NCBI GenBank assembly: GCA_036322855.1
Contig: AP027924.1
Span: forward strand, 61,361 to 125,360
Direction of reading: 5' to 3'
Source: Candidatus Improbicoccus pseudotrichonymphae
GTDB lineage: Bacteria; Bacillota; Clostridia; Oscillospirales; Acutalibacteraceae
Length of the DNA stretch: 64,000 bases
Part shown: positions 19,989 through 36,031 of the stretch, one piece after another
How the letters are laid out: the number at the start of each line of letters is the position of its first letter
Numbering within the stretch: the first letter of the stretch is position 1
The notes under the pieces: generated by a model
The model's database searches: none
What the model was told of the DNA's origin: nothing
Seen by the model: the letters and a program-made list of their open reading frames with translations, nothing else
Translations under genes and position numbers: made by a program

Positions 19989-20966
19989 TCAATAAATATG
20001 AATATCAATCTCGGATCTATATTTTTCTAATGCTAATGCCAATTCTTCAGATATCAAAAGATAATCGCCTCTTTCAGTTACACAAACTCTAATATTAGTT
20101 ACACGAAAATCAGGACCAGCTTCGTGCAATAGATCATGTGCATGACATCTAACATAGTTAGAATAGTCTTTTCCGGTGGATTCGCTTGGTTGTTTTTCTC
20201 CTAGTTCATAAACAAACTTAGAGTATTTATTTTCCAGTTCTCCCATTATTTTTTCTCTTATTATATCACTAGGAGGAGAAAAAAATAAAGCTCTTGCTAT
20301 GCCCATGGATTCTGCAACGGATGATTCAAATATATATAATCTGCCACCACGTCTACTAGATTTACCTAAATTTTCATAATACCCTCCTTTAGGATCTTTC
20401 TTATCTACTAATCTGCCTATATTACAAGTTTGGCGAGTTTTTCCACACATTTCGATTTGTCTAATTTCTGGTTTCTCTTTTGGTTCTTCTTCTTCTTCTT
20501 CTTCTTTTGGTTCTTCTTTTGGTTCTTCTTTTTTTATTTCTTCTTCTTCTTCTTCTTCTTTTATTTCTTCTTCTTCTTTTTTTGGTTTTGCCTTTCTAGG
20601 ACTAATTGCATCATATATAACTAAAATACCAACGCCTAAGACACTAATGCCAGCAATAGTTTTAGCTAAACTTGAAAGCTCTTCAGATTTATCAACCGTA
20701 TCGTCCTTTTTACTTTCATCTCCATTTTCATTTTTGTCGTTTTCTTTAACATTACTTTTATCTTCCGATACTTTAACGTTATCTTCGCATTTCGTTGTTT
20801 CAACAGTTTTCTTGCTGCTATCTACAAGTCGATCATCAGACCCAACAGCCCCAACAAAAGACTGACAACACATAATAACAGCTAAAATAGAAGATATTAT
20901 TTTATTGTTTTTATTAATCTTCTTGCTATTTTTATTTTCACCTATCCCATTGCTTTCTTTTTTCAT
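19989..20966 (-). CDS. 5'-module family member A: signal peptide, acidic spacer, TM helix, E/K-rich tract, C-terminal domain type 1
   Basis: N-terminus MKKESNGIGENKNSKKINKNNKIISSILAVIMCCQSFVGA is shared by all family members. C-terminal domain is related to member D (TCNIGRLV, YSKFVY, AGPDFR, SEEL). Confidence 0.75.
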   Translation of the reverse strand: MKKESNGIGENKNSKKINKNNKIISSILAVIMCCQSFVGAVGSDDRLVDSSKKTVETTKCEDNVKVSEDKSNVKENDKNENGDESKKDDTVDKSEELSSLAKTIAGISVLGVGILVIYDAISPRKAKPKKEEEEIKEEEEEEEIKKEEPKEEPKEEEEEEEPKEKPEIRQIEMCGKTRQTCNIGRLVDKKDPKGGYYENLGKSSRRGGRLYIFESSVAESMGIARALFFSPPSDIIREKIMGELENKYSKFVYELGEKQPSESTGKDYSNYVRCHAHDLLHEAGPDFRVTNIRVCVTERGDYLLISEELALALEKYRSEIDIHIY

Positions 20967-21060
20967 AGAGAGATCTCCCTGAGAGACCTCTCTCTCTCTC
21001 TCTCTCTCTCTCTCTCGAATTGAGAGAATTCATGAGAGATTTAATAAACTTATTTTTCAT
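20938..21060 (-). CDS. leader mini-ORF of member A (40 codons, +1 register, overlaps main ORF by 29 nt)
   Basis: AGGAGG SD plus ATG; MKNKFIKSLMNSLNS(RE)n..GLSGRSLYEKRKQWDR*. Confidence 0.5.
   Translation of the reverse strand: MKNKFIKSLMNSLNSRERERERERGLSGRSLYEKRKQWDR
20989..21016 (-). repeat. dinucleotide SSR (GA)14 inside leader A
   Basis: Counted directly: 28 nt of TC on the + strand. Confidence 0.95.
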
Positions 21061-21112
21061 AACCTTTCCTCCTGATATTAAAATATAAATCAGCGAAAAC
21101 ACTGATAAATTA

Positions 21113-21140
21113 ATTATAGCATTTTGAATTTTGCTGTCAA
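21113..21140 (-). promoter_or_regulatory. sigma-70-type promoter of member A (TTGACA-16-TGCTATAAT)
   Basis: Reverse complement reads TTGACAGCAAAATTCAAAATGCTATAAT; the same motif is upstream of B, D, E and F. Confidence 0.6.
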
Positions 21141-21150
21141 ACAGAATTAT

Positions 21151-21267
21151 GCGAAGCATTTTAATGCGACACTATTTAGCGGTGACTTTGTCTCCGCAAG
21201 AGACAATCTAGAGCCGCATGTTTCTTTGGGTTTCACCCGTTTCTTTGCGTCAAAGAAATGGGTGAAA
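21151..21267 (+). other. conserved three-hairpin element, copy 1
   Basis: GCATT/AATGC; GCGGT..TTGTCTC-loop-GAGACAA..GCCGC; TTTCACCCGTTTCTTTG-cgt-CAAAGAAATGGGTGAAA. Confidence 0.6.
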
Positions 21268-21354
21268 AAGAAATAAACTTTAATATGTTTAATTTAAATA
21301 CTTAGAGATAAAAATTTTATAAATATTATTTTTAAAATTATTTTTATTATCTTA

Positions 21355-21382
21355 TTGACAGCAAAATTCAAAATGCTATAAT
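21355..21382 (+). promoter_or_regulatory. sigma-70-type promoter of member B (TTGACA-16-TGCTATAAT)
   Basis: TTGACA at 21355-21360, extended -10 TGCTATAAT ending at 21382. Confidence 0.6.
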
Positions 21383-21434
21383 TAATTTATCAGTATTTTT
21401 GCTGATTCATATTTTAAAATCAGGAGGTAAAATT

Positions 21435-34287: not shown

Positions 34288-34484
34288 ATTCATTGGAGGC
34301 GTTTCTTAAAGAAGATAATTTCTTAAAGAAGATAATAATAAAAAAATTTTGATGAATTTTTTTAGTATGACACTACAAAATAGGAATTTAAATCTACCGG
34401 CAGGTGATACTAGTTTTTTTGATGTATTGAAAAAAATGATAAGTGGCATGTCATATGCGGAAGGTTTGATTAATGAACTAATTA

Positions 34485-34575
34485 GAGCCTGTTCACACGA
34501 AACAAAGAATCGAAAATAAATGCAAATAAAGAAAAGAAATGTACATTAAATCGGGCTTATCATAGCGTGTAAAAA
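34485..34575 (-). mobile_element. solo terminal fragment of the second IS5-family element
   Basis: GAGCCTGTTCACACGAAA.. plus ~75 nt aligning with the 3' end of 46038..46784. Confidence 0.5.
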
Positions 34576-34672
34576 GATGCATTAAAAAATCACTTTCTTC
34601 TTTAAAGAAAGTGATTTAAGAATGGGTTTTATAAAAACATAAACTTATAAATAATTTTAAACAAGAAGAGAT

Positions 34673-34788
34673 GCGAAGCATTTTAATGCGACACTATTTA
34701 GCGGCGACTTTGTCTCCGCAGGAGAGACAACTTAGAGCCGCATGTTTCTTTGGGTTTCACCCTCTTTGCGCCAAAGAAATGGGTGAAA
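34673..34788 (+). other. conserved three-hairpin element, copy 4
   Basis: GCATT/AATGC; GCGGC..TTGTCTCC-gca-GGAGA(GA)CAA..GCCGC; TTTCACCC-TCTTTG-cgc-CAAAGA-aat-GGGTGAAA. Confidence 0.6.
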
Positions 34789-34878
34789 GAGAAATAAATT
34801 TTATAAAATATTAATTTAAAATACTTAGAGATAAAAATTTTATAAATATATCTTTTTAAAATTTTTCGTGTTATTTGT

Positions 34879-34906
34879 TTGACAGCAAAATTCAAAATGC
34901 TATAAT
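34879..34906 (+). promoter_or_regulatory. sigma-70-type promoter of member F (TTGACA-16-TGCTATAAT)
   Basis: TTGACAGCAAAATTCAAAATGCTATAAT. Confidence 0.6.
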
Positions 34907-34957
34907 TATCTTATCAGTATTTTTGCTGATTCATATTTTAAAATCAGGAGGAAGGTT

Positions 34958-36031
34958 ATGAAAAATAACTTCATCAAATCTCTCATGAATTCTTTCAATT
35001 TGAGAGAGAGAGAGAGAGAGGTCTCTCAGGGAGATCTCTCTATGAAAAAAGAAAAAATAAGTAATAATGAAAATAATAAAAAGATTAGTAAAAATAATAA
35101 GATAATATCTTCTATTTTAGCTGTTGCTATGTGTTGTCAGTCTTTTGTCGGGGCCAATCCAAATTCGGATAATAGGGAATTTGTTTCGGATGAGGGCATT
35201 GATAATAATCAAACTGCAGATGGGTCTGAAGAAGACGATGAAGTAAAAGACATCAAAAGCAAAAAAAATAATAGTTCGAGTTTAATAAGAAATAGTTTAG
35301 ATGTTCTTTTAGTTGCTGCTATGGGCAGTTGGTGGTTTTATGGAACTAAAAATAAAGATAAAGATTTAAAATCTAAAAATGAGGAAATCGGAAGATTAGA
35401 GAAAGAATTTGAAAAAAAAGATAAAGAACTTGAAGGAAAAAATAGAGAACTTGGTGAGGAAATCGAAAAATTAAAGAAAGAACTTGAAAAAATCGAAAGA
35501 TTAGAGGAAGAATCATCTGAAGACATTTTGGAAAAAGAATATTTTAAATTAGACTTTCTTGAATATAAGGGTAAAAGAATTTTTACTTTTGCTTTAGGAA
35601 AGAAGATGGTGATTCGCAAAGATGAAGAAGATAAAGGCGAGACACTTTTTTATAGTTTGAGCTCAAATTTTGGTGGTATTTCAACTGTTTTCGTATGCGC
35701 CAGAAGGTATTTTTATAGTGATACAAATTATGAAATTTTCGATGGCGAAATTAGAAAAGCAGAAAACAAAATCAAAGGAGAATTAGAAAATATGGAACCG
35801 TATTCTCGATTTGTTTATAATGTCGCAATAGGCCGAGAGGATATTTCTGAATTAACAACCGAAGAAAAATTAGCAGAAAAATTGTGTGGATTATTGAGTG
35901 AATGCGAATCCAAATTTCGTTTGACAGGTTTTTATTTAACTTTAAGAAATTCAGGAAAAAAAATCGGAGATATCCTTGTGCCGCAAGAATTGGCGGAATC
36001 AGTTATTTCTGCCAATTCAGAACAGATATAA
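34958..36031 (+). CDS. 5'-module family member F (leader fused in frame); C-terminal domain type 4 (shared with G)
   Basis: MKNNFIKSLMNSFNLREREREVSQGDLSMKKEKISNNENNKKISKNNKIISSILAVAMCCQSFVGA..; TM helix; E/K coiled coil. C-terminus has FTFALGKK..PYSRFVY..FRLTGFYL as in G. Confidence 0.7.
   Translation: MKNNFIKSLMNSFNLREREREVSQGDLSMKKEKISNNENNKKISKNNKIISSILAVAMCCQSFVGANPNSDNREFVSDEGIDNNQTADGSEEDDEVKDIKSKKNNSSSLIRNSLDVLLVAAMGSWWFYGTKNKDKDLKSKNEEIGRLEKEFEKKDKELEGKNRELGEEIEKLKKELEKIERLEEESSEDILEKEYFKLDFLEYKGKRIFTFALGKKMVIRKDEEDKGETLFYSLSSNFGGISTVFVCARRYFYSDTNYEIFDGEIRKAENKIKGELENMEPYSRFVYNVAIGREDISELTTEEKLAEKLCGLLSECESKFRLTGFYLTLRNSGKKIGDILVPQELAESVISANSEQI
35002..35019 (+). repeat. dinucleotide SSR (GA)9 inside leader F
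   Basis: Counted directly. Confidence 0.95.

Follow-up and report, generated by a model that had tools for sequence, protein, structure and literature searches.

A previously undescribed family of genes for putative envelope or secreted proteins occurs in the genome of Candidatus Improbicoccus pseudotrichonymphae CfP3-15, which lives inside a termite-gut protist. Seven members (loci A to G) lie in the 64,000-nucleotide stretch analysed here (the window; contig AP027924.1, positions 61,361 to 125,360), six of them in an island at 19989-36031. In loci A to F, a consensus-like promoter and a strongly initiated leader are joined, through a simple sequence repeat (SSR), to a second start codon at the head of a near-invariant signal peptide, and the repeat sets the frame between the two starts. 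We think it likely that this is a species-restricted contingency-locus family of Sec-targeted single-pass membrane (or secreted) proteins, switched by slippage in the SSR; both the organism and the two-start arrangement are unusual for such a system.

A first reading of this DNA, made by a model from the letters alone, had held that seven loci share a nearly identical N-terminus and that six of them also share their upstream DNA, and both claims stand. A 30-nt signal-peptide pattern matches the window exactly seven times, at loci A to G, and a leader pattern six times, at A to F, with no match expected from shuffles. The patterns are 25-30 nt long. In a MAFFT alignment of the loci and in pairwise sliding windows, DNA identity is 85-98% from about -180 to about +115 and then drops to background. 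The loss is abrupt in pairs with different mature parts, and the boundary is the VGA site at codons 38-40. The coordinates first proposed are right, the spans of B and F taking in an in-frame leader and D starting with MRKE.

The signal-peptide module of about 40 codons is near-identical in all seven loci; A to F have in common, in addition, the promoter, a strong Shine-Dalgarno (SD) site, a 15-codon leader and an SSR (Table 1). Only five 12/12 matches to TTGACA-16/17-TATAAT occur between 19.5 and 37 kb, and they are the promoters of A, B, D, E and F, that of C scoring 11/12. Tandem Repeats Finder reports five pure (GA)n arrays in the whole window, each 100% pure and each between a leader and its MKKE start (A, B, C, E and F), and no further period-2 array; all five exceed the roughly 8 dinucleotide units at which such repeats become hypermutable. 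A compound repeat of GAAA and GA units takes the place of the pure tract in D. Past the repeat, a linker of about 20 nt with a weaker SD-like GGAG leads to the MKKE start and to a signal peptide of 38-40 residues that runs to VGA.

The predicted mRNAs of A, B, C and F begin with a 7-bp hairpin in which two pairs (positions 5 and 7) show compensatory changes from G-C to A-U. The hairpin is deleted in D and E, the two loci with GTG leader starts, and is probably a 5' stabiliser. An invertible promoter serving the divergent pairs A-B and D-E was considered and ruled out: every gene comes with a full promoter, and the pairs are not flanked by inverted repeats with a recombinase close by.

The hydropathy and charge of the proteins bear out the common architecture proposed from the sequence. 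Behind a hydrophobic core and the VGA site come a spacer that is acidic and rich in N (net charge -3 to -13, calculated on A-E) and then a second hydrophobic, glycine-rich segment. A rule-based check finds the elements of a Sec type-I signal peptide, namely a charged n-region (+5/+6, likewise for A-E), the core IISSILAV(I/V)MCC and V-G-A at its end; export and cleavage after VGA are predicted on this basis. The idea that the products are lipoproteins was dropped, the terminus ...ILAV(I/V)MCCQ(S/P)(F/L)VGA having M or C at -1 of each Cys, with no match to the lipobox [LVI][ASTVI][GAS]C and a VGA type-I site instead.

Measured from the leader start, the MKKE ATG lies at a distance of 94 nt in A, 84 in B, 100 in C, 103 in D, 83 in E and 84 in F, and frames 0, +1 and +2 are all represented among these six loci, with the SSR lying between the leader start and the main open reading frame (ORF). 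The earlier reading had not seen that the repeat sets this frame. In B and F the leader is fused in frame to the main ORF. In E it is in the +2 frame and its stop codon TGA overlaps the main start as ATGA. The leaders of A, C and D, which have the +1 frame, overrun the main start and terminate 23-29 nt inside the main ORF. The genome beyond the window was seen as proteins, and the repeat types of outside members are deduced from protein sequence: four of them (P0002, P0006, P0007 and P0011) are annotated from the leader and hence in frame, and three (P0004, P0005 and P0010) from MKKE.

The leader is very probably translated and its peptide constrained, since it combines a strong SD site, a preserved start, synonymous-only changes and a low ratio of non-synonymous to synonymous differences per site (pN/pS). 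Its SD site, AGGAGG or GGAGGT at optimal spacing, pairs with the anti-SD sequence at -10.3 to -11.7 kcal/mol, on a par with ribosomal-protein genes of the window and in the top 1.5% of random positions (random mean -2.4). The leaders of A, B, C and F begin with ATG, those of D and E with GTG. Codons 5, 6 and 9 vary synonymously only (TTT/TTC, ATT/ATA/ATC and CTC/CTT), and pN/pS, by crude Nei-Gojobori counts on an AT-rich genome, is 0.24 in the leader and 0.18 in the signal-peptide core: both are under purifying selection. The internal MKKE start has an SD-like site of its own (-6.8 to -8.0 kcal/mol; -10.0 in D and -11.6 in G), so that out-of-frame loci need not be silent.

Contingency loci have their repeats where slippage can act on expression, and here the SSR sits inside the leader ORF, between the strong start and the main ORF. 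Moreover, (GA)n tracts that are pure, long and of unequal length in cassettes with 85-98% identical flanks are a signature of active slippage. We propose that slipped-strand mispairing in the repeat shifts the frame between the leader start and the main ORF, and that tract length would vary within populations. Three states would follow: the leader fused to the ORF (B, F); a leader stop on the ATGA overlap, which would permit termination-reinitiation (E); and leader ribosomes that overrun the internal start to stop 23-29 nt downstream of it (A, C, D). The outcome would be stochastic, heritable and reversible variation in the output of each paralogue, and hence cell-to-cell heterogeneity in the set and dose of displayed members. 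In-frame 9-nt repeats in the spacer (41.9 copies in G, 9.8 in E) would contribute size variation.

Several points weigh against such a switch. We see a single consensus genome, with no tract-length polymorphism at any one locus, and the phi29 amplification that supplied the DNA may itself slip at SSRs. About 6 of 14 loci are in frame, a share indistinguishable from a random one third; the repeats of certain in-frame members seem to be interrupted or hexameric (RKRKRKRKRE in P0006), and slippage in these would give no frame shift. Given the internal SD-like site and the leader-less locus G, out-of-frame loci may still be expressed. Cleavage of the signal peptide would leave an identical mature product in the three states, and for that reason the switch may be graded or weak instead of ON/OFF. 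The protist host has no adaptive immunity that could act as the selective agent, and the pN/pS counts, as said, are crude. The bolder version of our proposal takes the grading at face value: a three-state translational rheostat would deliver the same mature protein at three heritable doses, in a host-facing family under diversifying selection in a protist-parasite arms race. We put this forward as a speculation that is rather unlikely to hold in full.

The second start also invites an explanation without any switch, which we consider unlikely. Expression would then be constitutive from MKKE; the leader would be a plain upstream ORF or would enhance translation, and the GA tract would be tolerated as a by-product that perhaps contributes to RNA structure. 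This would suit the GGAG or GGAGG found 8-10 nt upstream of MKKE at the energies given above, and the intact ORF of G, which has no leader cassette. It would also suit the linker peptide, which varies among in-frame members (VSQGDLS, SLRGFF, GLSGGFF) and so appears unconstrained as protein, and the complementary CUCUC blocks that flank the tract in a 5' region folding modestly better than shuffles (z = -2.1). A by-product, however, is hard to square with tracts that are pure, long and unequal in near-identical cassettes and that occur nowhere else in the window, nor is an incidental leader expected to keep a strong conserved SD site and start and to change only synonymously at three codons. 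Any ribosome that starts on the leader must also pass the internal start, whose use must therefore depend on the frame.

Returning to slippage as the preferred reading, we turn to what is displayed. The earlier suggestion of at least four unrelated body types does not survive comparison of the proteins: A, B, D, F and G have one orphan C-terminal domain in common, as judged by blastp (A-F 5e-10, D-G 3.5e-5, with B-D also linked), by alignments with common motifs (TxNIG, ENL, YS[KR]F[VI]Y, LL, FRL[VT]N and L[VI]SEEL) and by a domain profile that retrieves family members. Only C and E differ, the body of C and the C-terminus of E being unrelated to that profile (hhalign probability 0.1%). The AlphaFold2 model of the C-terminal domain, built from 14 paralogues, predicts an alpha/beta fold (pLDDT 76.7, pTM 0.76, pLDDT about 90 over the last 90 residues) that has no Foldseek match in the PDB (best E 0.28, TM-score about 0.15) or BFVD; a single-sequence model of the C body is too poor for a fold search (pLDDT 46). 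No family protein matches Pfam or NCBIfam above noise, and the leader, the 5' untranslated region and an 87-nt upstream element (element X, below) match no Rfam family. The initial impression that the leader, N-terminus and bodies belong to no described family is borne out by these searches.

The best PDB sequence matches of one profile (A5) were to histone H2B (E = 0.009-0.3, hhalign probability 10%), a tempting lead in a genome with many eukaryote-like genes: YSkFiYk aligns with YSIYVYKV of H2B and LLvSEELA with LLLPGELAKH, at similar spacing. We ruled it out, as none of 14 members matches Pfam Histone, no histone is among the Foldseek matches, and the AlphaFold2 model, with a pLDDT of about 90 there, shows a beta-hairpin in place of the alpha2 and alpha3 helices of H2B. 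The resemblance is treated as chance or convergence.

By the positive-inside rule, the acidic spacer would face outward into the host cytoplasm and the C-terminal domain would lie inside the bacterium. That placement fits poorly with the pN>pS of the domain. The target of the displayed parts may be the host cytoplasm or phage.

Mature parts evolve fast. Two pairs have bodies that can be aligned. For A-D, the signal peptide gives a pS/pN of 0.23/0.05 and the body one of 0.24/0.34; the corresponding values for F-G are 0.23/0.02 and 0.22/0.31. Non-synonymous divergence is 6-15 times greater in the body than in the cassette. Bodies that diverge at or above the neutral rate while every ORF stays open point to diversifying selection. 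Since pS is equal in cassette and body, the 5' identity results from purifying selection rather than from recent grafting or gene conversion, and with most bodies homologous the family arose mainly through duplication and divergence.

These figures bear on the proposal of the sequence-only reading that one cassette was grafted onto different genes. What stands of it is a conserved cassette that ends at the cleavage site; its other half fails for most loci, whose bodies are homologous, and grafting is arguable only for E and C. A more general version, in which a portable promoter-leader-signal-peptide cassette, possibly on a small mobile element such as element X, was grafted repeatedly onto unrelated genes, seems to us quite improbable. 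The sharp identity boundary would suit it, as would the structured 87-nt element directly upstream of three cassettes (with a diverged copy at C), the orphan body of C, the combination in E of a G-type N-terminal half with a body related to a cassette-less ORF, and N-terminal subtypes mixed with different spacers and bodies. Yet five of the seven bodies, and every further match that we read, fall in one domain family; the equal pS in cassette and body (A-D, F-G) indicates that both diverged together, the cassette being held by selection; no transposase was recognised in the island among the ORFs searched; and in-frame insertion by transposition is itself improbable.

Recombination within the family has nevertheless taken place. 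E is 90-98% identical to the N-terminal half of G through most of the acidic repeat, the identity declining towards the transmembrane segment, and past that segment E switches to its coiled-coil body. Two N-terminal subtypes, SNGIGENKNS and KISNNENNKK, occur in front of differing spacers and bodies, and the units formed by A and D, each with element X, are duplicates spaced about 10 kb apart.

The family is found in one genome. A HMMER search of 1.84 billion representative proteins with the body profile returns 11 matches, 10 of them from CfP3-15 (CfP315_0012, 0071, 0266, 0275, 0284, 0434, 0588, 0651, 0781 and 0823); the remaining match, P0012 (2439 aa), is marginal at E = 9.4e-4. The protein of locus A is 100% identical to P0001 (CfP315_0071), and CfP315_0072, which is locus B read from the leader, was retrieved by the same profile in a separate protein search. 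Counting window loci and further matches, among them the fragments P0008 (153 aa) and P0009 (123 aa), the family comprises at least 16 genes and gene fragments. The body of C matches only itself in the protein search, and cassette DNA and N-terminal peptide have no match in GTDB species genomes, JGI metagenomes or IMG/VR. An N-terminal profile found nothing among 5.8 billion proteins, not even the members in CfP3-15 itself, the query probably being too short and biased and the result hence uninformative. By these searches, this is an expanded orphan family confined to one species.

CfP3-15 is a coccoid member of the Clostridia that lives in the cytoplasm of Pseudotrichonympha grassii, a gut protist of the termite Coptotermes formosanus; its genome (1,007,634 bp, 1.0 Mb) has 805 coding sequences and 94 annotated pseudogenes and encodes an ATP/ADP translocase and eukaryote-like proteins, of which Table S10 of the paper includes Rab GTPases with signal peptides, and the organism has been read as an obligate intracellular energy parasite (Takahashi et al., ISME J 2023, PMC10579323). 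Neither the family, nor its locus tags, nor phase variation is mentioned in that paper or in the text of its supplement. The SecY encoded in the window shares 68% identity with its counterpart in Ca. I. devescovinae and about 55% with those of gut Acutalibacteraceae/Oscillospiraceae, and the window includes an NTP/NDP exchange transporter (ATP/ADP translocase), the hallmark of the energy-parasite lifestyle of the clade. The assembly is a MinION and MiSeq hybrid from phi29-amplified DNA, polished with Pilon and Illumina reads. Our comparison sets are small.

With such a genome one may ask whether the frames merely record gene erosion, or slippage by phi29 or in sequencing, in a decaying pseudogene family or an assembly artefact. 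We judge this very improbable. Annotated pseudogenes, whole-genome-amplified DNA and the presence of family fragments would all be compatible with it, and the pN>pS of the bodies could reflect relaxed constraint. All seven main ORFs nonetheless remain intact over their 254-532 codons, although paralogues differ from one another by about 0.3-0.4 per non-synonymous site; purifying selection on signal peptide and leader is clear, the promoters are perfect (12/12), and the assembly was corrected and polished with Illumina reads.

The likeness to variable surface-protein systems noted at the outset is apt. Among the closest known systems are the Hop proteins of Helicobacter pylori (oipA/hopH, sabA, sabB, hopZ, babB), which like the proteins here are exported envelope paralogues with a pure dinucleotide tract (CT/GA) in the 5' part of the coding sequence, either ahead of the signal-peptide portion or inside it; oipA is switched by dinucleotide repeats in that region (PMC10564699). 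In Hop genes slippage sets the ORF in or out of frame, which for the present family is only proposed. Hop proteins are beta-barrels of a diderm, whereas our organism is a monoderm clostridial endosymbiont whose proteins show no sequence or fold relationship to them: there is no Pfam or NCBIfam match to Hop or Opa beta-barrels, and the alpha/beta AlphaFold2 model has no Foldseek match. In the present family the repeat also belongs to a distinct leader with strong initiation and is followed by a second conserved start that has an SD-like site, so that, unlike in Hop genes, out-of-frame states need not be null.

Neisseria opa genes, with CTCTT repeats in the signal-peptide coding region (phasome overview: PMC5953494), resemble the family in being scattered loci with an SSR in the leader-peptide coding sequence; each is switched independently, alleles are recombination mosaics, and a conserved 5' part precedes hypervariable exposed parts. 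They differ in having a pentamer rather than a dimer or tetramer repeat, in encoding 8-stranded beta-barrels and in lacking an upstream second start, and they are not homologous.

In mycoplasmas, the families Vlp (M. hyorhinis), Vsp (M. bovis), Vpma (M. agalactiae; PMC2268961) and MBA (Ureaplasma; PMC3047005) have a near-identical 5' region and signal peptide, with identity that stops at the signal-peptide boundary, as our alignment finds here. Their mature parts are divergent, charged and of low complexity, with in-frame tandem repeats such as we find in G, E and A; the genes are clustered, divergent pairs included, in reduced genomes of host-dependent bacteria. In contrast, they are lipoproteins with a lipobox, and they switch either through poly-A tracts in the promoter or through site-specific inversion, which a linked recombinase carries out. 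Here the SSR lies inside the leader ORF, the promoter spacers are constant at 16 or 17 nt without a homopolymer, and the sole recombinase is a prophage-type serine recombinase beside tRNA-Ser. The proteins of CfP3-15 are further predicted to have a second transmembrane segment and a folded C-terminal domain. Listeria ActA and the chlamydial Inc proteins share with our predicted topology a layout in which a signal peptide or a hydrophobic segment at the N-terminus is combined with a membrane anchor and a host-facing region that is acidic and repetitive, and their bacteria share an intracellular lifestyle; they have no sequence similarity to the family and are not SSR-switched multigene families with a shared 5' cassette. 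The family is analogous to Hop, opa and Vlp/Vsp/Vpma and a homologue of none.

Table 1 Features of loci A to G and of their surroundings (window coordinates).
Feature	Position	Strand	Remarks
A main ORF	19989-20966	-	CfP315_0071, 325 aa; signal peptide, acidic spacer, transmembrane segment, E/K-rich tract, family C-terminal domain
A leader ORF	20938-21060	-	ATG, +1 frame; stop 29 nt inside main ORF
A SSR	20988-21016	-	(GA)14.5
A 5' hairpin	21089-21106	-	ATCAGTG/CGCTGAT; compensatory changes vs B, F, C
A promoter	21113-21140	-	TTGACA-16-TATAAT, 12/12, extended TG
Element X, copy 1	21159-21245	+	87 nt; between divergent A and B promoters
B promoter	21355-21382	+	12/12, TG
B 5' hairpin	21389-21406		
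B ORF from leader ATG	21435-22283	+	CfP315_0072, 282 aa; internal MKKE ATG at 21519, in frame
B SSR	21479-21499	+	(GA)10.5
Element X, diverged copy	~24180-24244		near C
C promoter	24348-24376	+	TTGACA-17-TATAAC, 11/12
C 5' hairpin	24383-24400		
C leader ORF	24429-24551	+	+1 frame; stop 23 nt inside main ORF
C SSR	24473-24507	+	(GA)17.5
C main ORF	24529-25476	+	CfP315_0074, 315 aa; orphan body
ORF after C	25493-26548	+	351 aa
CIS13-like protein	26692-28680	-	mid-island; partial NCBIfam match
CIS12-like/Tail_P2_I protein	28704-29873	-	mid-island; partial NCBIfam match
D main ORF	30134-31003	-	289 aa; starts MRKE; A-type body
D leader ORF	30975-31106	-	GTG, +1 frame
D SSR	31027-31061	-	(GAAA)7(GA)3
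D promoter	31139-31167	-	12/12
Element X, copy 2	31187-31273	+	
E promoter	31500-31527	+	12/12, TG
E leader ORF	31559-31645	+	GTG, +2 frame; stop TGA overlaps main start (ATGA)
E SSR	31603-31621	+	(GA)9.5
E main ORF	31642-33240	+	532 aa; G-like N-terminal half, transmembrane segment, long coiled coil
E 9-nt repeat	31835-31922		in frame, 9.8 copies
Cassette-less paralogue of E body	33487-34287	+	blastp vs E 3e-6; repeat family in common
Element X, copy 3	34681-34767	+	
F promoter	34879-34906	+	12/12, TG
F 5' hairpin	34913-34930		
F ORF from leader ATG	34958-36031	+	357 aa; internal MKKE ATG at 35042, in frame
F SSR	35002-35020	+	(GA)9.5
G main ORF	46784-48178	-	464 aa; F-type body
G 9-nt repeat	47609-47985	-	in frame, 41.9 copies, 98% pure; encodes (EKE/VKE/DKE)n
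G alternative upstream ORF	48156-48326	-	56 codons; overlaps G start in +1 frame
NTP/NDP exchange transporter	4014-5507	-	TIGR00769, E = 2e-91
Inverted repeat, arms	7698-7977; 36357-36636		280 nt, 99% identity
Small ORFs in the arms	7730-8026; 36350-36604	+; -	
DUF4280 (PAAR-like) protein	9364-9819	-	
Prophage remnant	10731-19582		between tRNA-Ser and tRNA-Glu
tRNA-Ser	10731-10821		
Large serine recombinase	10884-12584		
pemK RNA motif	13070-13190		
DUF859 siphovirus tail protein	14143-16137		truncated inverted duplicate at 18917-19513
Tail-spike duplicates	16293-16751; 17766-18716		95% identical inverted repeats around IS4/5 fragment
IS4/5 DUF4096 fragment	17379-17729		
tRNA-Glu	19508-19582		

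Some members have features of their own. A has an in-frame repeat of 27 nt in 3.8 copies in its mature region, the family domain of B is shortened at its C-terminus, F places a short coiled coil before the family domain, and the coiled coil of E has 42/105-nt repeats. Locus G has no promoter, leader or SSR and retains only about 35 nt before its ATG; its long 9-nt array appears to be a size-variable acidic spacer. The ORF upstream of G begins like a classical signal peptide (MIIKKYLILFLSLFCMSIAFA) and reaches the G start through a degenerate GAAAGAGAGAAA repeat remnant; the region looks like a recombination that swapped out the standard leader. The protein encoded after locus C has its own signal-peptide-like N-terminus and a long coiled coil weakly similar to the cassette-less paralogue of E; no SD site is detectable at the listed start, and as this start lies only 16 nt past the stop of C the gene is probably co-transcribed with C.

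Element X always lies just upstream of cassettes in + orientation. Together with the next conserved block it can form three hairpins (fold z = -6.4) and has no U tract of the terminator type; at E, an insertion of 125 nt interrupts the long hairpin.

The island is surrounded by a prophage remnant and scattered genes of a contractile injection system. It had been described as littered with insertion sequences (IS), a picture that we do not recover: among the ORFs searched there is one IS4/5 fragment, outside 19989-36031, and no transposase-like product was recognised inside that range on reading its ORFs, part of which were searched against Pfam/NCBIfam. The CIS13-like and CIS12-like/Tail_P2_I genes in mid-island match only part of their NCBIfam models and may for that reason be remnants. 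The family as cargo of this system was set aside; proximity alone speaks for it, and cargo of contractile injection systems is not expected to have Sec signal peptides. The arms of the 280-nt inverted repeat bracket about 28 kb, with the prophage remnant and six of the seven family loci, and are a possible substrate for a large inversion. Each encodes a small ORF with a double-glycine leader-like motif, LDEKDLDDISGG; the copy at 36350-36604, the one searched, has no Pfam match.

Families of contingency loci are characteristic of pathogens exposed to adaptive immunity or phage, and to our knowledge none has been described in obligate intracellular Clostridia or in any endosymbiont of termite-gut protists. 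A 1-Mb genome that has lost most biosynthesis still keeps many copies of one orphan family. Its perfect promoters, putative hypermutable switches and pN>pS suggest that the parasite-protist interface, or phage pressure within the host, is under strong and fluctuating selection, and the family supplies candidate surface or effector proteins. Two starts and three frames would make it a natural case of an SSR that grades expression rather than simply switching it; if the rheostat is true, it would reveal an arms race between a protist cell and its clostridial energy parasite.

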